Virus record (IMG/VR): IMGVR_UViG_3300037045_000039
Coordinates: 1-33,835 of that record
Reading direction: 5' to 3' (one strand)
Length of the DNA stretch: 33,835 nt
DNA from: a virus
Taxonomy: Duplodnaviria > Caudoviricetes
The notes below the pieces were generated by a model. The model was not told the DNA's origin, made no database searches, and worked only from the letters and a program-made list of their open reading frames with translations. Made by a program: the position numbers and the translations under genes. The number at the start of each line of letters is the position of its first letter. The stretch's first letter is position 1. Positions 3,935 to 19,943 of this stretch are shown here, piece after piece.

Positions 3935-4125
3935 GTATATTGTGCGTATATTGTTTGTATATTGTCTCTGGAAAAAGTGCCCGTTTTGGGCTTATATGGA
4001 AAACAAAAACCCCCGAACCGCAATGGTTTGGGGGTTTGCATTTTGAATTGAATTATCGTTTTGAGAATTGACGCTGTAGGCATATCAATGCTAGAATCAA
4101 TTATTGTATATTGTACGTATCTTTC
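3935..4125. other. attP with arm-type repeats and rpsI-derived core
   Basis: GTATATTGT at 3935, 3946, 3957 and 4106 (degenerate copy at 4117); core 4053-4070 on the minus strand reads CAA TTC TCA AAA CGA TAA = QFSKR*. Confidence 0.85.
4000..4037 (-). terminator. Intrinsic terminator (likely the replacement rpsI terminator; may be bidirectional)
   Basis: Hairpin AAACCCCCGAACC-GCAAT-GGTTTGGGGGTTT with a T-rich tail on the minus strand. Confidence 0.85.
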
Positions 4126-4526: not shown

Positions 4527-5148
4527 ATTTCTTGATCTTTTTAATTGCGTTTTTAAATGCAGACTTTAGGTAGTCTGGATTTGCTGAGATTTCTTTGTTT
4601 AATACTTTTAGCCAATGCCCCGCACTTGTAATAATTTCGCAGGCAATCATATCATTGACCAATTGTTCTATTTCTGTTTTAGGTTTGGCAATGTTCATTA
4701 AAATTTCAAGAGGATCAATAGAGTTTGGATATTTACCGGCACCAGATATTCCTCTATCCCAAAATACTTTATTATCTCCGTAACTGCCCTCTCTGATTTC
4801 GAAGTGAAGATGCGGACCAGTGGATGCACCAGTAGAACCGAGATAACCTATTGTATCGCCGCCGTTTAACTGAGCGCCTTGTGCAGCGCCTTTTTTACTT
4901 AGATGGGCATATACTGTCAAGAATCCTTTGTGTTCGATGACGACGTACCAACCTAGCGCTGTGTGAAATTGAGATATTAAAACTTTGCCGTTTGCGATGG
5001 CGTGAAGCTTTGTTCCCGCGGGATATAAGATGTCGATGCCGTTATGGAAGTCGGCGCGCTTGGTTATTGGATGCGTTCTTTGTCCGTATAGACCTTTTAT
5101 CTTTTCGCGATCGAGGTCTTTGATTGGTAGGTGGGTTATGTTAATCAT
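4525..5148 (-). CDS. Endolysin, M23 peptidase
   Basis: HNGID (HxxxD), YAHL and STGPHLHFE (HxH) motifs; follows the holin. Confidence 0.92.
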   Translation of the reverse strand: MINITHLPIKDLDREKIKGLYGQRTHPITKRADFHNGIDILYPAGTKLHAIANGKVLISQFHTALGWYVVIEHKGFLTVYAHLSKKGAAQGAQLNGGDTIGYLGSTGASTGPHLHFEIREGSYGDNKVFWDRGISGAGKYPNSIDPLEILMNIAKPKTEIEQLVNDMIACEIITSAGHWLKVLNKEISANPDYLKSAFKNAIKKIKK

Positions 5149-5354
5149 ACGTCATCGCTTTTGTTTGCTGAATCAACTAATCCCTCGCCGACAATGTAAG
5201 CCACGACTGAAGCGCCAGCCATGATTAATGCCGCAACTTGTGCAGCTTCATTTTGATCATTCGTCTTGGCGATAACAATCATCGATACAAATCCAGCGAC
5301 TGCCGCCCACATTTTGCGTGATGTTAATTTTCTTTTCCAATCAACTTTATTCAT
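5145..5354 (-). CDS. Holin
   Basis: MNKVDWKRKLTSRK, two TM segments, directly upstream of the lysin; RBS favours the ATG at 5354. Confidence 0.82.
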   Translation of the reverse strand: MNKVDWKRKLTSRKMWAAVAGFVSMIVIAKTNDQNEAAQVAALIMAGASVVAYIVGEGLVDSANKSDDV

Positions 5355-5556
5355 AATCATTCTCCTTTTCGATTTTTTTCTTCTTGATTCCTGCCAGAGT
5401 CCACAACTCAACCGTGGTAAAGCCAAACCATGCCCCTACAAGCGCTGTAGGTTCGTTTGATGTGTGATAGAATACGATTAATACTGCGGTTGTAAAGATG
5501 ATGTTTAGGGCGATTATAAAGGCTATTAAGACTTTAGAAAACTTAGGTTTCTTCAC
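5347..5556 (-). CDS. Small two-TM lysis-module membrane protein
   Basis: GTG start overlaps the upstream stop; two hydrophobic segments with EP between them; basic tail. Confidence 0.7.
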   Translation of the reverse strand: MKKPKFSKVLIAFIIALNIIFTTAVLIVFYHTSNEPTALVGAWFGFTTVELWTLAGIKKKKIEKENDYE

Positions 5557-5963
5557 CCTGCACCGCCTTTCGTAAATGCCAACCATACAAGTCCGAATAC
5601 CGCTGATATCGAAAGTGATATTAAAAGCCATTTCACCTGCTTCAACATTTTCTCTGCATCTGCGCCTGACTTTTTTTCGACTATCTCCAATCTATTAACA
5701 AGCTTCGAAACGGTTTCTTTTGTTTCCATTTTTTCTTCTATGGTGTCGATTTTCTTTCCTTGCTCTTTCATCGTTTCGACTATCGCTTCAAGCTGCTTTC
5801 CTTGGTGCTTGGCTTCATTCGCTATGGTTGCGACGTTCGTGTTCATGGCATGGACCAAATCAATAAGTTCGGAAATGTTGTCTAATCTCTTATGCGCCGA
5901 TTTTGTCGATGCTTTCAGTTCTGCAAAATCCTGTATACAGGTCGGATTCTGTTCATGGACCAT
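5553..5963 (-). CDS. XhlA-like coiled-coil protein with C-terminal TM
   Basis: STKSAHKRLD motif, coiled coil and C-terminal TM; first gene of the lysis cassette. Confidence 0.7.
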   Translation of the reverse strand: MVHEQNPTCIQDFAELKASTKSAHKRLDNISELIDLVHAMNTNVATIANEAKHQGKQLEAIVETMKEQGKKIDTIEEKMETKETVSKLVNRLEIVEKKSGADAEKMLKQVKWLLISLSISAVFGLVWLAFTKGGAG

Positions 5964-5974
5964 AACGACCCCCT

Positions 5975-7339
5975 TTAAATAATTTCTTCGTATCCAATGG
6001 ATCCCGATGAATGTTGCTGAGTGATTTTAGATATATAATCTGATATTCTGCCTTTGCCTAATCTACCGCCGCTATCGACCGTGAAATCTGTTCTATAACC
6101 TTGCTTGCCGAAGCTGTGCGTGACTTCTGTGATGACGCCGATATCTTCTGTTCCTGAGTCGCTAACAATATGCGCATAATCACCTGGCATGATGTACGGT
6201 CTGAACGGACCTGTGAAGCTTTCGATTTTACCGACATTTTCGAGTCTTAATGCGAGTTCATCTGCGTATAAAATCGCTTGGTACTCTTGCATGCCATCTT
6301 GAACACTTACATAGAGCGTCTTGTTTGCCTGTAGATTCCATCCAGTGTAAGATGCTACATCTCTATAGACTTTGACTGAGAAGTCGCTAGTATGGACGCA
6401 AACGCGTCTGTAGGCATCCATATCATCGCGCGTTATGTCGCGGCTGAAAATGTCTGTGTTGCGATTAAATGTGAATGTTCCAGGCTGAGTGAATTGATTA
6501 TATGAAGGACTGCCAACTACCACGGTTCCATCGCTTAATTCTTCGGCCTTCCAATTAATCAACGCCTTAAATATTTCCTTTGAGGCATCGAGGACTGAGG
6601 TATTCGGGTCAAATGTGAAGCTGTTCATTGCTGTGGTTTCTTCGATTAAAAATTGATCGGTGTTTAAGTTGGCGTTCTCAAGCATCGTTTTGATGATTAG
6701 ATGGATGTAGTTGTAATAAAATTGATTATTTTCATCGAGTGATTGGTCGCTGAGTGCTTTTCCTATGAGATTTCTACCATCTACGCTGACTTCCGGTCTG
6801 AGTGGCGAAAATTCACTCCTATCCACATAATACACGCCCATCTCAACATCTTCGCTGTCGCCCATGCCGAATAGATATTGTACCTTGGCGCCAGGCGATA
6901 ATAGGGCTTCTTTTTCGCTAATGGCCACGTTGAGTTGTTTGTCTGATGACTCGTCAATCGGATTAGCGAGCGTCGTTGTGAATGATACAATCGGATTGTC
7001 GATGGTTAATTTGATTGAACCGTTTTCGAGATAGTCCTCAAGTTCAAGCGCAAACTCGTAAATGATCATCTTGTGCGTGTCGGCTGACTTATAAGAGCCA
7101 GCCATTCCGAAACCGTTTATCGTTTTAATCTCTAGGTTTGTGATGCTCGAATCTTGCGACACGTCGGCGGTTGCCTCTAGTTGCGGAGTTCCGTATTCAC
7201 CATTGAGTTTCTTTATCGGGATACCTTGCATATCTCCCGCGCTTAAGCAGAAAATCTCTGCTGACGTGTCGTAAAATTGAATGACGTCCGGGTATGAGCC
7301 AGACGCCAGATTGACTAGGTTTTCAAATATCAGTTCCAT
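5975..7339 (-). CDS. Tail protein, baseplate hub/Tal-like
   Basis: MGVYYVD...VDGRNL and PYIMPGD...ITEVTHSF..GYRTDFTV patterns typical of hub proteins; lies in the tail module. Confidence 0.65.
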   Translation of the reverse strand: MELIFENLVNLASGSYPDVIQFYDTSAEIFCLSAGDMQGIPIKKLNGEYGTPQLEATADVSQDSSITNLEIKTINGFGMAGSYKSADTHKMIIYEFALELEDYLENGSIKLTIDNPIVSFTTTLANPIDESSDKQLNVAISEKEALLSPGAKVQYLFGMGDSEDVEMGVYYVDRSEFSPLRPEVSVDGRNLIGKALSDQSLDENNQFYYNYIHLIIKTMLENANLNTDQFLIEETTAMNSFTFDPNTSVLDASKEIFKALINWKAEELSDGTVVVGSPSYNQFTQPGTFTFNRNTDIFSRDITRDDMDAYRRVCVHTSDFSVKVYRDVASYTGWNLQANKTLYVSVQDGMQEYQAILYADELALRLENVGKIESFTGPFRPYIMPGDYAHIVSDSGTEDIGVITEVTHSFGKQGYRTDFTVDSGGRLGKGRISDYISKITQQHSSGSIGYEEII

Positions 7340-7348
7340 AGCACCGCC

Positions 7349-7732
7349 TTAATATCCCCTATCGAATATTACAATTTCCCCATCTTCAAATATCTCTACT
7401 GTGAATGTTGACTTTGGATTCCTTGGGTCTTTTGGCCATTCGTCTAAATATGAATACCATGCTTCGTGAAGATTGTTTGTTGTTATCTCAATGTCACTTC
7501 GGGCTTTTGTTCCGCCGTCGTGTGATGACCATGTTACGCGTGTGCTAGGGTAGTCGATGGTAAACAGTACCGCGGCATCGTGTAGTTTTTTAACTGTTAA
7601 ATCATAAGCGACATCTTCGGCTTTGTTCTTGGCACCCATGATGCTTGGGACTAAAACGAGTATTAAGATGCCTATGATGGCGATTACTACTATTAATTCA
7701 ATGAGGGTAAAGCCTTTTTTCTTTTTCGTCAT
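7349..7732 (-). CDS. Type IV pilin/pseudopilin-like protein with class III signal peptide
   Basis: MTKKKKG|FTLIELIVVIAIIGILILVLVP: basic leader, G-1/F+1/E+5, hydrophobic helix with P22; C-terminal YLDEWPKDP. Confidence 0.92.
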   Translation of the reverse strand: MTKKKKGFTLIELIVVIAIIGILILVLVPSIMGAKNKAEDVAYDLTVKKLHDAAVLFTIDYPSTRVTWSSHDGGTKARSDIEITTNNLHEAWYSYLDEWPKDPRNPKSTFTVEIFEDGEIVIFDRGY

Positions 7733-7905
7733 ACTTCTACCTCGATTACTTCTGTGAAGGTTTCGTCAATAACTTCCGTTTCTTTTGTTTCGCATGGTTC
7801 AACTTGGATTTGTTCTTTGCATCCTGTGCATTCAATGAAATCGCTGATTGTCCAGTATTCTAGTTGTTTGCCGCATTTGGGGCAGTTGATTATTTTGGTT
7901 GTCAT
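7729..7905 (-). CDS. 58-aa zinc-ribbon protein (not in ORF track)
   Basis: MTTKIINCPKCGKQLEYWTISDFIECTGCKEQ...; AAAGGAG RBS; its stop overlaps the pilin ATG (ATGA). Confidence 0.75.
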   Translation of the reverse strand: MTTKIINCPKCGKQLEYWTISDFIECTGCKEQIQVEPCETKETEVIDETFTEVIEVEV

Positions 7906-7918
7906 GGGTACTCCTTTC

Positions 7919-9517
7919 TTATAGTGGGCGGATGAATTCTAGGATTGGGCGGAAACCGTAGCCCGAAGTTGCTGTCGATGGATCACATGTATTTGAGCGT
8001 GTGACGGAGTCAATGCCGCGTACCGTGCGAGCCGAGCCGTCGATTTTCGAAGTCAATGTGTACATGTTTGTGATCCCCAATTCTGCATCCGTGAAAGATG
8101 CCCATGTGTCGTAATTCGTATGCAACGGATACATGAGTGCGTTCCATTCTGTGTCGCTAAGCATTCTAACCGCGTACAATCCGCCTTGAACGGCTACAAG
8201 TTTTTCGCCGTAAACACAGCCTAATGCGTTAAGTGTGTTCCATGAGATTGTGTGCCTAATACACATTTTAGATAAAAGATATCTTTGACCATCTTTGGCA
8301 ACTTTTGACCATCCTGCGAGCGAATTTATCAATGTGCCCGTTGTGACTCCGAGTAATGTACATAGGTCTGCGCCATTAATAAAATCATCCGCTGCAACTT
8401 CTCCAAAATAACCATAATTTGTGTCGCCTGCGATTGGGGTTTCCGAACCGGGCATTGCAGTATAATCTGTTGCAGGTTCTACTGGTGATGGTTGCGCGCC
8501 TGCAAATTGAATTGTGATCGATGGCTTAAATGTGCAATTGATGTCTTTAGGGAACAAGCTAGTCATGTAACTCATCGTTACCGCGCCTGTTGTTGGCGCA
8601 GGATTAAATACAATTTGTTCAGCCGCGTTTTTCGTCCAGTTGTTATTTTGAACGCCATCAACTTTCATTACAATATTGCTGACATCTTGATTTGGAATGT
8701 TGAACGTTGTTTTAACACCGTTCGCCGTGCCGACATTTACATTATTTTTCTGTAGTCCTGTAAATACGCCAGTTCTTGGAATTCTGCATCTAACTCCGAC
8801 CGATGTCCATGCGAAGTATCGAATGTCTTTGTTCCAATCTGACACTCCCCATTCTGCTGAAATCTTTGTTGATTTTGCAGCTGCGTCTATTGTTCGAGTA
8901 CCTGTTTTTGTTTGGCCAATCGCTGTAAATTCATCCGTTTTAGTGAGCGATACACCCATTATATTTCCTGGTGCTGAGCCACCTGTGAGATAATCTCGCA
9001 ATCCGTTGCTGATGAAATTTAGTCCACTATCAACGTCGTATAATTCAACGTAAACAGTCGCGTAAATGTCGATAATTTTGGTGATGGTCTTTTCGATTTC
9101 AATCGGGTTGCCTTCTGAATCTGTGATTAATGCGTGTGTGTTGATTAGTGTTGTGTCGTCACTGATTCCAACTTCTCGCAAAAACATGCCATTGTTATCA
9201 TTGACGTCTAGTCTGATTTTTCTAGTCCATACACTTAACGGGTACGACCTCACTAGGGTTACATCTGTTGCAGCTTTATAATTAACTCGTGAGAATAGCG
9301 TCGTTCTTGCGGCCGATAGCGCGCCTGTTCCGCTACCGTATACGATGTTCGTAAAAAATGTTGAGAAATTTGTTAATCTCGTGTACATCCTATCAAGTAC
9401 GATGTTTTCCGCTTGTGGCTTTAACTCTGCATATGCCTTGCTGATTTCTCCCGTTTCAACGTCAGTAATCACAAAGTCGAAGCGGTTGTGTACTATTGGT
9501 CTTATCTGTTTTTCCAT
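7919..9517 (-). CDS. Tail fibre/receptor-binding protein with C-terminal C-type-lectin-like domain
   Basis: N-terminal collar-like region (YGSGTG..., LREVGI); C-terminus EWNALM...RTVRG...GYGFRPILE. Confidence 0.72.
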   Translation of the reverse strand: MEKQIRPIVHNRFDFVITDVETGEISKAYAELKPQAENIVLDRMYTRLTNFSTFFTNIVYGSGTGALSAARTTLFSRVNYKAATDVTLVRSYPLSVWTRKIRLDVNDNNGMFLREVGISDDTTLINTHALITDSEGNPIEIEKTITKIIDIYATVYVELYDVDSGLNFISNGLRDYLTGGSAPGNIMGVSLTKTDEFTAIGQTKTGTRTIDAAAKSTKISAEWGVSDWNKDIRYFAWTSVGVRCRIPRTGVFTGLQKNNVNVGTANGVKTTFNIPNQDVSNIVMKVDGVQNNNWTKNAAEQIVFNPAPTTGAVTMSYMTSLFPKDINCTFKPSITIQFAGAQPSPVEPATDYTAMPGSETPIAGDTNYGYFGEVAADDFINGADLCTLLGVTTGTLINSLAGWSKVAKDGQRYLLSKMCIRHTISWNTLNALGCVYGEKLVAVQGGLYAVRMLSDTEWNALMYPLHTNYDTWASFTDAELGITNMYTLTSKIDGSARTVRGIDSVTRSNTCDPSTATSGYGFRPILEFIRPL

Positions 9518-9525
9518 TTGCCCTC

Positions 9526-10026
9526 CTAAGGATTTACTATGGTTACGTCGGTGTATTCAACAGTTGCGGTTAATGCGTTTGCTTTTATGGTGTGTTGTTC
9601 GGTTGATGATGCGCTTAGATATTGGATTAAAGAATAATCTAATGTTGCAATAATTATGCCTCTAATGGTTTCTTCATCGTTCGGGTTGATTTCACGGCGC
9701 AAATCTGTTGCCGTAAACGGATAGTTAAAACTCAACACATCGCCCGTTGTTCCTTTTAAATTTCCTAACGCTTGATTGTAACTGACTGTCAGTTGACCTT
9801 CGACGTTATTGAATCGTGCGAATTGATCAACTGTGATTAATAGTGTCCGTGGTTCTGTTGGATGCGCTACGACCGAGGTTACCGTGTATGTTTTGGCGAT
9901 TATCGGTCCATTGATGTATTTGTATTCTTGACCTGTCACGCTGAACGCCGACACATTGCCTGTAACATCTCCAAGTAATGGCATGGTGAATTTGATTGCT
10001 ATTTTCTTTCCTTCTGCTTTACTCAT
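9526..10026 (-). CDS. Minor tail protein, Ig-like beta-rich
   Basis: Tail operon position; beta-rich; FNNVEGQLTVSY resembles FNNAYGNLSVNF in the upstream gene. Confidence 0.6.
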   Translation of the reverse strand: MSKAEGKKIAIKFTMPLLGDVTGNVSAFSVTGQEYKYINGPIIAKTYTVTSVVAHPTEPRTLLITVDQFARFNNVEGQLTVSYNQALGNLKGTTGDVLSFNYPFTATDLRREINPNDEETIRGIIIATLDYSLIQYLSASSTEQHTIKANALTATVEYTDVTIVNP

Positions 10027-11302
10027 TCCACACCCCCTCAACTTCTGGTACTGGGATGAATGTTGGTACTAAGTTTGTAGGTAAGAAAGCGAGTGAAAAT
10101 GAAATCATGTCCTGTTCGTTCTCGCCTTTTGTTATTCCGCCACCTGTGAAATTAACCGATAAATTGCCGTAAGCGTTATTGAAATCGGACGTTTCTAATG
10201 TGTAGATGTTTCCTGAAACGTGCGTGATGCCTAACACTTGGAATAATGCGCTGTTTTCATCGGTCAAGCTGAAATCCGTCGGTGAAGGCGTTGTGAGTCC
10301 GTGTTCGAATTCTACTGTTATTGAATAGCCCCAGTTGTCCAACTCGTCGGGTTCGTTTTCTGCGGATAATATTGCGTTGTAAGGTACGGCCCATAATAAA
10401 CGCGCTGTGACATCGCTGATCGCCGTGAAAATTGATTCTGTGTGTTGTGGTTCAAAGTATTCGATGTAGTCATATTCGACCGATGCGCCAAATGGTGAGG
10501 CTACAATTGACTCATGACCGATAGCCATGCCCGCCCAATTTCTCTCACTGATTAGCCAATGGATTTGGTTTGTTGTGGATTGGACAACGAAGCCCATTCG
10601 ATAATCGTTTAAGAGAAATAAATTTAAATTTGTAATCTGAAAATTAATCTCTGCGACACTTCGGGCGGGTTCCCAATTTTGTACTCCGCCGATGTCTTGG
10701 CAATAACTGCGGTAATATAAAAAGCCGTCAGATTTGATATATCCGACGACTATCCCTTGGTCGCGTTCGGGGTAATACTTGTTTTTCCATCCACGCATCG
10801 CCTTGACTTTTAAAACGTCTGTAGCGAGTTCTACACGGGTTAAAACGTTATCCCAATGTTGCGCCCATAACACGTTCGAAGTGTCAACCCACATAACCCA
10901 CGGCTTTTCTGATGTTTGTAATCGCCACTTTTTGCGCCATAGATTCCAATCGCCATCGAATGCTAAGGCTACTGCGATTCCCGCGCCGAGGTCAAATTGA
11001 TGTTGCCAGCCATCTTCTAACAAATCGGGATACTCTCTAATGGTGGTTTTGACGATGCCGTTGTCCACGTGGATTTCATGGATTCGGTCTGGGCGTCCAT
11101 AGGGGCGTTGGCGTCTTGGTGCTAGGCTGATGTCGCCAAGGCCTGTTTTCGTGCGGATCGTCTCGACGGTCCAATAGGTAGAATCCACTACGGCCGACCG
11201 CGCCCTCGAGACTTGCACGCTCATGCGCGGCTGTGCATTGTTTGCCGGCGTCTGCAAATTGGAATTGAGTTTTGCGAGCAAGTCAGGGCTTATTGGTCTC
11301 AT
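10019..11302 (-). CDS. Minor tail/baseplate protein
   Basis: Starts MRPISP with ATGA coupling; second gene after the tape measure. Confidence 0.65.
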   Translation of the reverse strand: MRPISPDLLAKLNSNLQTPANNAQPRMSVQVSRARSAVVDSTYWTVETIRTKTGLGDISLAPRRQRPYGRPDRIHEIHVDNGIVKTTIREYPDLLEDGWQHQFDLGAGIAVALAFDGDWNLWRKKWRLQTSEKPWVMWVDTSNVLWAQHWDNVLTRVELATDVLKVKAMRGWKNKYYPERDQGIVVGYIKSDGFLYYRSYCQDIGGVQNWEPARSVAEINFQITNLNLFLLNDYRMGFVVQSTTNQIHWLISERNWAGMAIGHESIVASPFGASVEYDYIEYFEPQHTESIFTAISDVTARLLWAVPYNAILSAENEPDELDNWGYSITVEFEHGLTTPSPTDFSLTDENSALFQVLGITHVSGNIYTLETSDFNNAYGNLSVNFTGGGITKGENEQDMISFSLAFLPTNLVPTFIPVPEVEGVWNE

Positions 11303-11646
11303 AGGGTTCCTTCCTCTAAAATGTTGAGTTTTAGAACTGCAAAATAGTATTCTTTGGTGATTCTTTTCCACGTTGGCTTATCAAGCAATAGGCCAGTGTA
11401 TACCGTTGTCTCTTTGACTAATTTGAACTTAGCGCCTGTTGCTCTGAGGTTGTTGATCAAGTCAACTTGCGCATTGGATGAGAGTGTTTCGAATTTTACA
11501 GACTTGCTTGCAGCTCCAATGATTTGAACATGAGATTGTCCATCGAGGGTTTGATTGATCACTTCGATTGCGTCGTTGTCAGCTGGCTCAATTGTTCCAA
11601 TGTTCTCGCTCAGCACGACATTTGCGATGGTTAGAAGTTGATTCAT
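11299..11646 (-). CDS. Distal tail (Dit)-like small protein
   Basis: Immediately follows the tape measure gene with an ATGA overlap. Confidence 0.55.
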   Translation of the reverse strand: MNQLLTIANVVLSENIGTIEPADNDAIEVINQTLDGQSHVQIIGAASKSVKFETLSSNAQVDLINNLRATGAKFKLVKETTVYTGLLLDKPTWKRITKEYYFAVLKLNILEEGTL

Positions 11647-14312: not shown

Positions 14313-15131
14313 TTAGCCAATTTGATTCACAACTGTGACCGTTCCAACTGCTTTGGCTTTGTTTGTGCCATCCACTTCGATGATCGTCAATACTTGGCCA
14401 CTTGTAGCTGTAAACTCTGTCGTACCAGGTGTGACCGCGGTCCATCCAGTTGTGTAAACAGAATCATATACAACCACTTCAGCTGCTTCACCAATTTTGC
14501 CTTTATAGCTATTGCCCGCAATCAATGTAGGCGATACTGTGTCAACTTTGGTTTTGCCTGCTGTGCCTGAAATAACGACCACTGTCAAGACATCAAGCCA
14601 TGCATATTCTTCAGTGTACTTGATGAGAGTACCTTCAGAATCTTGTGGTTGCGCTTTGAATTCAGCGTCGACAACTGTTTCTTTGTTTTTGACGAATGCC
14701 ATAGAGAAACCCGCTTGGTTTTGACCAACGATTGTCACTCTGATGTCGCCATCTGCAGGATCTTCATGCAAGAAGTGAATAACATACTTTTTGCCGTTAT
14801 TGTTTTTGATCCCGCCGATTTTCACCGTTCTGATACCGCCAGCCTCAGTCACTCTAGCTGTGCTTGACAGTTTGGCTAATGTCTTGCCGTTCCACGTCAT
14901 GATTCCAGATTTGAGAGTTGCTTCTTCATCAGTGATAATCATCTTTGTGACGGTACCACTATCGTCTTTTGCCTCGTAGAACGTCGGCTTGTATTCTAAA
15001 CTCGCACCACCTGAAATCTTTCCGACTTCATTATCGTCAGTTTCAATTGTGGCTTGCGCTGGAACCTCGCCAGTGAACTCTAGTACAAAAAGCCTTCCGC
15101 TTCCTAATACTATCTTTTCTTTGTCATCCAT
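14313..15131 (-). CDS. Major tail tube protein with C-terminal beta-rich extension
   Basis: IVLGSG...GKISGGASLEY N-terminus; synteny; about 95 aa C-terminal appendage. Confidence 0.88.
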   Translation of the reverse strand: MDDKEKIVLGSGRLFVLEFTGEVPAQATIETDDNEVGKISGGASLEYKPTFYEAKDDSGTVTKMIITDEEATLKSGIMTWNGKTLAKLSSTARVTEAGGIRTVKIGGIKNNNGKKYVIHFLHEDPADGDIRVTIVGQNQAGFSMAFVKNKETVVDAEFKAQPQDSEGTLIKYTEEYAWLDVLTVVVISGTAGKTKVDTVSPTLIAGNSYKGKIGEAAEVVVYDSVYTTGWTAVTPGTTEFTATSGQVLTIIEVDGTNKAKAVGTVTVVNQIG

Positions 15132-16475: not shown

Positions 16476-18143
16476 TTAAGATTTAGTTACGATGACAGTG
16501 TAAGTCTTAGTTGTAGTACCATTAGTAACAACAACTTCAACTGTGTTTTCGCCAGCATCCCAAGTAGGCGCATCGCCACTTGCGATAACAACTGTGTTGA
16601 CTTTGATGACAACATTCGCTTTGGCAACAGCAGCAACTGCAGATACAGCGTTGGTTGCGTTAGTTGTAGCTACAGTATACGCACCAGTTGCGCCGTCAAA
16701 TACAGGCGATAAAGCTAGAACGCCAATCTTGAGTTCTTTCAAGTACGCGTCTGAAGGATTCGCTGTATCAGGAGAGAAAGCAACGGATGCCGTTGGTGTT
16801 ACGTTGTTGATGTTGACATGAACGAACGATTCTCCAAATACAGGCTTGCCGTCATAACGTGCAGTGCCTTTGAAAACAGTGTTGTCTTCAATGAACTTCA
16901 CGTGCTCAGATTGAGCCAATGTCATGCCAGCTCTTTCGGCTAAAGAGTAAAGTGATCCGTAACCGCCAACGATATCGTAGTCAGCCATGAAATCAAGTTC
17001 AATGATCTTGCCGCCCTCGATAGGCATCGTATAGTTCATACCTGCTACAAGCGCGCCTGCAGCGTTGAATGCGATCATTTTTGACATGATGAACATTCTT
17101 GTTGTTCTGTTCATAACCCAGAACGTGCCGCCCTTCGCATAGTTTGGTCGTGCAATTGCCAGCTTCAAAATCAAAGCAGCAAAGAATGCTTCTGATGAAA
17201 GAGCTGAACTTGCAAATTTTGTTACGTTTGAAGTTCTAAGATCTGTCCATGCAGGTGCTTTTTCTGACCAGTCCGATGGCTTAGCAGCTTGAGCTAAGCG
17301 CGTAACGATACCAAGTGGCATCTTCTTACCCGTACCGTAAACAATCGCTTTATCAACCGCAAGACCAATTGCTTGAGCAATCGCATCAAGAATCTCAGCT
17401 GCTAAATTGATATCGCTGTCTTCTAGTGTTGAGTTGCATACTGCCATGAAGCCGCCAACTTTGAATCCATCAAGTTCAATTTGATTGAACACGATAGACA
17501 GTTCATTGAGCGTTGCACAAGCTTCCGTCCAAATACCTTCTGGAATAGTGCCAGCGATGTTCTGTCTACCTTTTCCTTTGATCGGTCTGAGATTGACTTC
17601 TGCAATCAACTTGCTGTATCTGTGCAAATTGTCTTTGACAAGTTCGAGCATCACATCAGGGAAGTTAAGTTCAGCACCGCTGACACTTCTGTTTTGTGTC
17701 TTCGGACCAAGTTGTCTAACTTGCTCTAAAAACTCTTTGACTTCGGCTCTAGTGACAAGTGCAGTTCTTTCTTCGTATGACATGTTTCTGAATAATCCAT
17801 TGATTCTCATTTGTGTACCTCCCTCAGTTTTTTCAACCTTTTTACTTCTTGATTCTGGCTCAACATTTGATGGCGCTTTGCTGTTGAGCTCTTCAATTTC
17901 TTGCTCTAAAACAGTGATCTCACCTTCAAGTTTTGATTTCTTTTCAATGAGCGTGCCTTTACTCGCTTCAATTGCATCGATCTCATCGTCGACAATTTGA
18001 ATCTCTTCTTCTGTGACCGCTTGCTCCAGTGCCACTTCAACATTTGTTTCTCTTTGTTCAATTGCTGACAGCTCTGTTGAGATTTCTGCCAATGCCGCTT
18101 TTCTTTGTTCGATTTTTCTTGCATTAACTAATTGTCTTAACAT
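16476..18143 (-). CDS. HK97-fold major capsid protein with coiled-coil delta domain and C-terminal cadherin/Ig-like domain
   Basis: N-terminal coiled coil; FKGTARYDGKP core end; then DAYLKELKIG..LSPVFD..YTV..GENTVEVVVTNG..KTYTVIVTK. Confidence 0.93.
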   Translation of the reverse strand: MLRQLVNARKIEQRKAALAEISTELSAIEQRETNVEVALEQAVTEEEIQIVDDEIDAIEASKGTLIEKKSKLEGEITVLEQEIEELNSKAPSNVEPESRSKKVEKTEGGTQMRINGLFRNMSYEERTALVTRAEVKEFLEQVRQLGPKTQNRSVSGAELNFPDVMLELVKDNLHRYSKLIAEVNLRPIKGKGRQNIAGTIPEGIWTEACATLNELSIVFNQIELDGFKVGGFMAVCNSTLEDSDINLAAEILDAIAQAIGLAVDKAIVYGTGKKMPLGIVTRLAQAAKPSDWSEKAPAWTDLRTSNVTKFASSALSSEAFFAALILKLAIARPNYAKGGTFWVMNRTTRMFIMSKMIAFNAAGALVAGMNYTMPIEGGKIIELDFMADYDIVGGYGSLYSLAERAGMTLAQSEHVKFIEDNTVFKGTARYDGKPVFGESFVHVNINNVTPTASVAFSPDTANPSDAYLKELKIGVLALSPVFDGATGAYTVATTNATNAVSAVAAVAKANVVIKVNTVVIASGDAPTWDAGENTVEVVVTNGTTTKTYTVIVTKS

Positions 18144-18738
18144 TATTTAACCTCGCTTTCGTATTGTGTTTTCTCTGCTCAAGTTGCTTTTGTTTATGGC
18201 GATCAACGTCAGCTTTACGCTCTAAGACGCCAGCTTGAGCACTTGTCTCCGTATATTGAGGAAATGTCACAACCGACACTTCGTGCAAATCAATCTTCTT
18301 GATGATCCACTTGACAGTTCCGTCTTCACGCCATTCAGTCTCTTCCTCAAGAATATTGAAACCGAAAGAACATTGGTCAACGTCACCGCGTTCGACACGT
18401 GCATAAAGGTTCATGGCATCAGTGTCATTTTCATTGACATAAATCACACCCCAAACGCCATAAGCATCAATTCGAAGTACAAGTGTTCCCTTCTTGTTTC
18501 TTCCGAGAACCAAATGATGTTCGTGATTGTTTAGCGCTCTTATGTCATTTGAAAGTGTCTCATTGCATGCATCAGGATGAATCACTTCATAAGCACCTGG
18601 CCACAATTCGGTTTCTGTGTTGAAAACGATGAAGCAACCCTCAATTACTTTTTTTGCATTGTCACCTTCTGCCCTAGTAGTCAGCTTCGATGTAATGCTT
18701 CGCATTTGATATACATCTCTAATCTCTTCACTCATCAC
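18124..18738 (-). CDS. HK97-family prohead protease
   Basis: ALNNH..VLGR, DQCSFGF and [12 protein letters not shown] motifs. Confidence 0.93.
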
Positions 18739-19943
18739 TTCTCTTCCCCTCCTTCCTTGTTGAGTTTTTTCTGGTCCCCAATCATTCCGGCAGGGATGTA
18801 GTTCTCGAGTATGATTCTTTCATCAAGCCCATCAATTGGTGATAAACCTAACGAATCTCTGACCTCGTTTCCAGTCATAATACTTCTGACAAATAAATTT
18901 GAGCCTAGATCAGCCAAGTCTTTTAAGTCATACGCGTACAAGCTGCGTGGATTCAACTTGAAATACCAGCTCGATTTTTCAATCAAACCTTTTGTTAGGG
19001 TTTGCTCAATCGTTTTTGCAATTGACATGATTCGCGTTCCGATAAAGCTATTGAATTCATCTCGCTTAAACTCGCCTACGCCCAAGAAAAAAGCAGGTAC
19101 CTGAATGATTCCTGCGACGGTTCTTTTATCTATGAGCACTGCATCATTAATCGCAAGATCATTGAGAGACAGTGGCTTTATTTGGTCCACTTTCATGAAC
19201 TCACCTGGTATTACCCAAGGTTGTCCAGCTTCAGTGTTGCCAATGTAGTCGTCGAGAATCTTTTTTCGACCTTCTTCGTTAGACATTTCTTCACTGAGCG
19301 CATCAATCGAGACTATGACAGATGGTTTCCACTTGTCACTCATGAATGCGTTCTTAGTTTTATTTGCCTGCTTCAGGTTGTTGGCCACATCTTTGAGTTC
19401 GACTCGATTTCCTGTACCCATCCAAGGTTTTTCAGGATCCGGATTAACCACAAAGTGAAGCACTTCGTCATAGTTGTACTCTTGACCTTGATAAATGACT
19501 TTGTAACCATTCGGTGTCGAATCAAATCGAACATAAGATGGTCTTAACGGAATCAGTTCTTTGATATTGCCGTTGCTATCATAGATCGGATAGACGATAC
19601 AGTTCCCATCTCCCTCTAAAAGCATGATGTAAACTATGTTGTATAGCCACGCCTTGCGCGTCATGAGCGAGTATGGATTGATGTCTATTTTTCTAGCTAG
19701 CTCGTTTTTGACACGTACATCACCTTTGTCTGTGTTTTCCATGAGGTGAATGGTCATAGAGCTAACCAAGTCTGCAATTTTACTAACAGCCATTTTTACT
19801 TCTGCATTCTGACTCAACTTCGTATAGCCAGCTGTGCATAAGGTCTCATATCCATCCAGTGAAGTGAGCCATCCAACGTTCGATGGTTCTGACCTAGTCT
19901 TCTGCTCAGGCCTTTTATTACCTCGGTTTTTCTTTCTAGACAC
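18735..19943 (-). CDS. HK97-family portal protein
   Basis: 402 aa; [13 protein letters not shown] and MTGNEVR motifs; follows TerL. Confidence 0.93.

Follow-up and report, generated by a model that had tools for sequence, protein, structure and literature searches.

The tail-tip region of a tailed virus genome (Caudoviricetes; IMGVR_UViG_3300037045_000039, positions 1–33,835; the whole 33,835-nt stretch that was analysed is hereafter called the window) carries a real and intact gene for a type IV prepilin of 127 amino acids (positions 7349–7732, minus strand), which, judged from related tail modules, is an optional accessory cassette, an insert rather than a core tail gene. The reading we prefer, to which we give a little less than an even chance, is that the phage pilin is built into the pilus of the host and thereby masks a receptor, which would counter superinfection or the loss of progeny. 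The window is a complete temperate siphophage, with a 238-bp terminal repeat at its ends (one mismatch) and genes for a tyrosine integrase, a capsid protein and a tape-measure protein.

The initial annotation had recognized a class III prepilin (KKKKG|FTLIE, with P22) between a fibre gene and a hub-like gene, and this was confirmed by a PF07963 score of 38 bits against a cut-off of 21.2 and by a regular expression for the class III motif, which matched once in the window and never in 100 shuffled versions of it. The open reading frame at 7349–7732 also has E5 and G14, and the basic leader, the G|F cleavage site and the hydrophobic helix are all present. The assignment draws further on phrog_3433 (“pilin”), whose match is limited to residues 3–42, on the family alignment, on host homologues and on an AF2 model (pLDDT 89), in which a long helix (residues 10–60), predicted to anchor the protein in the membrane, is combined with strands forming a small beta head. 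The best structural matches in VIA include PilJ (Z 5.0), PulG (4.5), PilA4 (4.4) and PilA1 (4.2), all of them weak, and a Foldseek search with the same model returned nothing at E ≤ 0.001, with pilins appearing at E 0.2–2. A metagenome contig from run X1, which may be the window's own source sample, covers 7328–7888 without a single differing letter, and identical letters across the pilin gene were found in groundwater DNA runs, one of which is possibly the source sample; RNA runs were absent from the listed holders of this sequence, which speaks neither for nor against expression. Homologues, the matching read contig and the shuffles together rule out an assembly artefact or a chance motif as the origin of the gene.

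On the same strand, the pilin gene is preceded by an open reading frame for a 58-aa CxxC protein (7729–7905, minus strand), zinc-ribbon-like with an acidic tail, for which Pfam gave weak zinc-ribbon matches below the cut-off and the ESM Atlas only generic zinc-domain clusters. Farther upstream lies the gene for a fibre-like tail-tip protein of 532 aa (7919–9517, minus strand), a candidate receptor-binding protein that matches phrog_4176 (tail fibre) over residues 38–157. The downstream neighbour encodes a hub-like tail protein of 454 aa (5975–7339, minus strand; phrog_1887 tail protein, E 1e-6), homologues of which occur at 37 viral loci and in 8 of 401 genomes. The structure model of the fibre was unusable (pLDDT 37) and its sequence had no match in the PDB; known pilus binders had no match among the tail proteins of the window. 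Jumbo phages of Pseudomonas and Erwinia have virion structural proteins homologous to the C-terminal domain of the fibre (approximately residues 355–531; window 7922–8460, minus strand).

The tight packing of these genes was also described correctly at the outset: an ATGA overlap joins the CxxC frame to the pilin start, and the pilin stop and the hub-like gene are 9 nt apart. Three cases are intact, namely the window and the IMG/VR loci L081 and L082; in these the CxxC gene is always the upstream neighbour, and the overlaps with the upstream gene measure 4, 23 and 29 nt. Between 7000 and 8600 no sigma-70-type promoter was found on the coding strand and one site on the opposite strand against 2.8 expected; none of the three intact cases has a sigma-70-type site above chance, and a terminator-like site 41 nt past the pilin stop is no more than chance would give (2 found, 1.4 expected), in agreement with the earlier statement that the gene has no promoter or terminator of its own. 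The same agreement holds for the stated lack of a prepilin peptidase, ATPase or platform gene, as tblastn with host proteins (E ≤ 1) found no homologue of PilB, PilT, PilC, PilD or PilM in the window; the sole host pilus query with a match was PilA (38%, E 5e-23). The suggested reliance on host pilus machinery fits this evidence and has a tested precedent in P-FimU (PMC12952977).

Searches with the neighbours of the pilin yielded approximately 81 distinct viral contigs (hand count) and 10 prophage loci, from which 62 slots (58 viral, 4 prophage) were counted that had homologues of both the fibre and the hub in view; contigs with the slot cut off and L082, whose hub piece fell below the threshold, stand outside this count. 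The pilin family occupies only two of the 62 slots (L081 and the 5′-truncated L239, which retains just the 3′ part of the gene), which amounts to 2 of 36 once the slots are clustered at 90% identity of the hub, and the other 60 homologous tail modules have neither an intact nor a partial pilin. Among them are L275 and L286, which match the window at 90% identity in the terminase, 65% in the capsid and 67% in the hub and yet lack the pilin. A profile of the pilin head alone recovered three loci in IMG/VR. Since the CxxC frame is present in 35 of the 62 slots and the pilin in 2, the former belongs to the tail module and the latter is the insert; the CxxC protein as a dedicated pilin partner was rejected because 34 slots carry it without a pilin, and by this count its gene is ordinary content of the module.

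Gene order in L081 and L082 is as in the window (fibre, CxxC, pilin, and the hub or an N-terminal piece of it). L082, the third phage with the pilin in this slot, has a different backbone, and its tail-tip block (L082:1663–8588) consists of a 450-like domain, a 171-like gene, a short fibre, CxxC, pilin and a 98-aa hub N-terminal piece; the block, grafted onto this other backbone, is thus itself a portable module. The pilin accompanies a long fibre in the window and L081 and a short one in L082, and long-fibre relatives such as L256–L259 are without it, so its presence does not track the fibre type. The conserved linkage to the tail module that the initial annotation had proposed to look for was accordingly limited to 2 of 62 slots plus L082 outside the count, and the covariation with the receptor-binding protein did not appear. 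Judged by conservation in homologous tail modules, the pilin fails as a core tail-operon gene, and the view of it as an integrated late gene rather than a moron was wrong as far as gene content goes; it behaves as a moron by gene content, but as one that is wired into the operon.

Relatives of this tail module differ in other tail-tip genes as well. In some, the tail tip contains sugar-binding domains of the F5/8 type C, and L259 (7878–9601) and L359 (135–1253) carry Avd-like and reverse transcriptase genes between fibre and CxxC, of which a remnant is seen in L258 (8667–9017) and none in the window at that place. These genes look like a diversity-generating retroelement aimed at the C-terminus of the fibre, and together with the sugar-binding domains they suggest that receptors may vary.

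Rarity among relatives goes along with selective constraint. Pairwise dN/dS values of the pilin were 0.18 (window and L081), 0.09 (window and L082, with dS near saturation) and 0.25 (L081 and L082), which indicates purifying selection. One part of the situation named beforehand as damaging to the idea, absence from related phages, was found in 60 of 62 relatives; the other part, decay of the gene, was seen in the truncated L239 but not in the window. The pilins of L081 and L082 are 75% identical (dS 0.57), as against 26–38% identity and a dS of 1.4–1.8 for the fibre, CxxC and upstream genes of the same two loci, so that the cassette appears to move between tail modules while keeping its slot. 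The L239 remnant is 99.5% identical to the L081 pilin over 215 nt, with fibre and hub proteins at 66–67%; this too suggests that the pilin has passed from one tail module to another at a single slot, although the near-identity of L239 and L081 could instead reflect an assembly chimera.

Protein searches recovered 42 other homologues with open frames, 44–87% identical to the window pilin (the next match had 38%), none of them from NCBI or UniRef; no GenBank phage matched the pilin, and scans of metagenomes and genomes, dominated by matches to the generic N-terminal motif, gave no close family member among the matches listed. Phage context was read in the three intact cases, the approximately 40 other members being known as proteins only. 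A quick ML tree was computed from 131 mature pilins, with 3 leaderless rows and the distant P0139–P0149 left out; in it, all 42 rows of the family fall into a single clade (SH-aLRT 97), nested in a group (SH-aLRT 91) that holds all 12 host pilins included. The comparison with host pilins proposed earlier thus placed the phage family in a clade of its own. Residues W68, W92, Y95, P100, V112 and I114 of the head are invariant in 16 aligned phage-family and host pilins, and such an invariant core agrees with a subunit that is competent for assembly.

Among 401 genomes from the order to which a Gudongella genome belongs, which we take to be the Tissierellales, 13 gave a match to the head profile (best E 9e-10); none of 301 did so in the order of an Anaerosolibacter genome. 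The host homologue follows a pilC-like gene in 12 of the 13 loci (one is cut by a contig end) and, again in 12 of 13, is itself followed by a gene for a prepilin peptidase; pilus machinery was confirmed with Pfam for two of these loci, and some of the operons also hold a second PilT-like ATPase. As the profile matches the pilin beside pilC and pilD and not the minor pilins of the same operons, and by analogy with the synteny of comGB and comGC, where ComGC follows ComGB (PMC3244431), this host protein is likely a major pilin. The nearest cellular relatives that could be placed are the pilins beside pilC and pilD in Tissierellales pilus operons. One of these (P0044, Keratinibaculum) has the signal and the head motifs in common with the window pilin at 38% overall identity, and the heads of phage pilin and seven host pilins are 24–36% identical; the phage family differs in forming a separate clade and in having no assembly genes nearby. 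Eight of these 401 genomes contain the tail module; none of the eight is among the 13 with a head-profile match, and none has a family pilin. Pilin genes were present in all five tail-module genomes tested, which is a weak sign given a background frequency without control.

Phage-encoded pilins have been described before. According to Sztanko et al. (PMC12952977), P-FimU of F10-like prophages of Pseudomonas aeruginosa is encoded within the tail cluster and is not required for replication; it enters the working host pilus and blocks the adsorption of related phages, and lysogens transcribe p-fimU, for which a separate promoter is predicted. The window pilin resembles P-FimU in being a type IV pilin that is encoded among the tail genes of a temperate siphophage and needs host machinery, and in its divergence (P-FimU is approximately 30% identical to its host subunit, compared with 24–36% for the heads here); non-essentiality, shown for P-FimU, is suggested for the window pilin by gene absence. 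The two differ in that P-FimU copies a minor tip pilin of a Gram-negative host, has its gene between those for tail tube and chaperone and is present in all F10-like phages its authors examined, whereas the window pilin resembles what is likely a major pilin of Gram-positive anaerobes, is encoded among the tail-tip genes and is rare among relatives; moreover, it overlaps the upstream gene with no promoter detected, unlike the gene transcribed in lysogens. It is no homologue of FimU and hence not a P-FimU member, even if our best guess has it work in a similar way. The same source (Tables S3 and S4) lists untested PilA copies in a Xylella prophage (P-PilA) and in Nankokuvirus (Pseudomonas), Vibrio, Aeromonas and Synechococcus phages, which are likewise major-pilin-like genes in phage genomes with a proposed role in adsorption but for which all listed hosts are Gram-negative. 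“Undescribed system”, as the initial annotation put it, was therefore too strong in view of P-FimU; the concept of a phage pilin in the host pilus is already in print, which limits the surprise, and what the window adds is likely a Gram-positive major-pilin variant. No report of a Gram-positive phage pilin, or of a competence pilus as a phage receptor, was found in the open-licence literature. A receptor-blocking gene beside a receptor-binding gene is also found in phage T5, where Llp is a lipoprotein that plugs an outer-membrane receptor; it is not a pilin and not homologous to the window pilin.

Under the masking reading, the pilin would be translated from the late transcript in coupling with the CxxC frame, cleaved at G|F and N-methylated by host PilD, and co-assembled with the host pilin by host PilB and PilC, and its head, only 24–36% identical to the compared host pilins, would mask or dilute the surface bound by phages. 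The gain would be superinfection exclusion and fewer progeny lost onto the pili of the dying cell; protection of a lysogen would require an internal promoter, none of which was found. An altered pilus receptor had been the first hypothesis of the initial annotation, and it fits the present evidence: the P-FimU precedent tested in PMC12952977, the accessory spread, the purifying selection, the slot-keeping mobility, the invariant head residues and the single clade are all consistent with masking. Several points speak against it. That the window phage binds pili is something we infer rather than observe, and tail-tip receptors may vary among its relatives; the pilin has no promoter above chance, whereas p-fimU has a predicted one (PMC12952977); replacing a major pilin takes far more protein than replacing a tip pilin; and the presence of the pilin is independent of fibre type. 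A more specific proposal, that siphophages of Tissierellales/Clostridia attach to the type IV pilus of the host by means of a widespread tail-tip module and exchange among their tail operons a mobile major-pilin mimic that, expressed as a coupled late gene, recoats this pilus against kin phages, we regard as doubtful.

The divergent head would equally suit a dominant-negative pilin that is processed and then jams assembly or titrates PilD, so that pili vanish and pilus phages and DNA uptake are blocked. Inhibitors of pilus assembly are known from Pseudomonas phages (Aqs1, PMC11436027, and Zip), and truncated phage PilA copies have been proposed to act in a dominant-negative way in PMC12952977. 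Yet the whole head is under purifying selection, more than a poison subunit would need, and the same text has the pilus working on with P-FimU proteins, so we consider this explanation unlikely. Lysogenic conversion, in which the phage subunit would alter host adhesion or DNA uptake without relation to adsorption, suits a temperate phage with integrase and terminal repeat, host homologues in pil operons that partly hold a second PilT-like ATPase, and the frequent disturbance of competence by mobile elements (PMC12378983); we rate it as quite unlikely, as no promoter for expression in a lysogen was found and the fixed place beside tail-tip genes in different backbones would be left unexplained.

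Late-operon coupling would give the high output that a decoy needs, and the family members (44–87% identical to the window pilin) might still bind tail tips from membrane or debris and soak up competing phages, but a binding pilin would inactivate the phage's own progeny too, and tail-tip binding by the pilin is purely hypothetical, which makes a decoy improbable. A neutral passenger acquired from a host pil operon would account for the rarity among relatives and the truncated copy in L239, but hardly for dN/dS values of 0.09–0.25 or for 42 open-frame homologues at 44–87% identity in one clade, and we hold it to be very improbable. The least probable reading is that of a virion or tail-assembly component linked to the adjacent fibre, also advanced in the initial annotation: position and upstream overlap in three phages (4, 23 and 29 nt) would agree with it, but 60 of 62 homologous modules do without any copy, L239 has lost the 5′ part, and the helix is that of a membrane-anchored pilin.

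If the masking reading were true, receptor replacement by a phage pilin, so far shown for a tip pilin in Pseudomonas, would reach a likely major pilin and Gram-positive anaerobes, and the type IV pilus would become a candidate receptor for siphophages of a large group that is as yet unstudied (approximately 81 viral contigs, 8 of 401 genomes). The more specific proposal that we regard as doubtful would also mean that tailed phages of Gram-positive bacteria use a type IV pilus receptor, with L099 as an independent capture of the same trick. Natural variants of one tail module with and without the pilin make the question directly testable.

Prepilin motifs are frequent in IMG/VR (approximately 650 stretches estimated, 234 of 599 confirmed). 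A scan of 32 proteins, pilins and their neighbours, taken from some of these loci gave tail-gene matches only for L099 (IMGVR_UViG_3300025000_000129), an unrelated siphophage with Firmicutes-like genes in which two prepilin genes (130 and 131 aa; region 4693–11419) stand directly after tape-measure and tail-tip genes, with a 185-bp gap upstream; this pair is likely an independent capture. At L246 (IMGVR_UViG_2901118534_000001, 17609–19772), a pilin frame lies beyond an integrase and an unknown gene, with an in-frame stop just before the cleavage motif, as if an element had integrated into a host pilin gene at its 5′ end.

Elsewhere in the window, the integrase has named relatives at no more than 54% identity, and a putative attachment core (4034–4051) lies between integrase and lysis genes. 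Read on the minus strand, it gives the end of a peptide, then a stop and a terminator-like hairpin, presumably resembling the 3′ end of rpsI, and its exact 20-mer is absent from the 301 and 401 genomes searched. A membrane-anchored protein of 345 aa with a nuclease-like domain (PF13930; 1720–2757, plus strand) is encoded beside the repressor region and has a weak match to a “superinfection exclusion” PHROG. For a 427-aa protein, the ESM Atlas gave a propeller lead below 0.9. The major tail and capsid proteins (14313–15131 and 16476–18143, minus strand) have C-terminal surface domains, of the SbsC C-terminal type and a cadherin-like beta sandwich.
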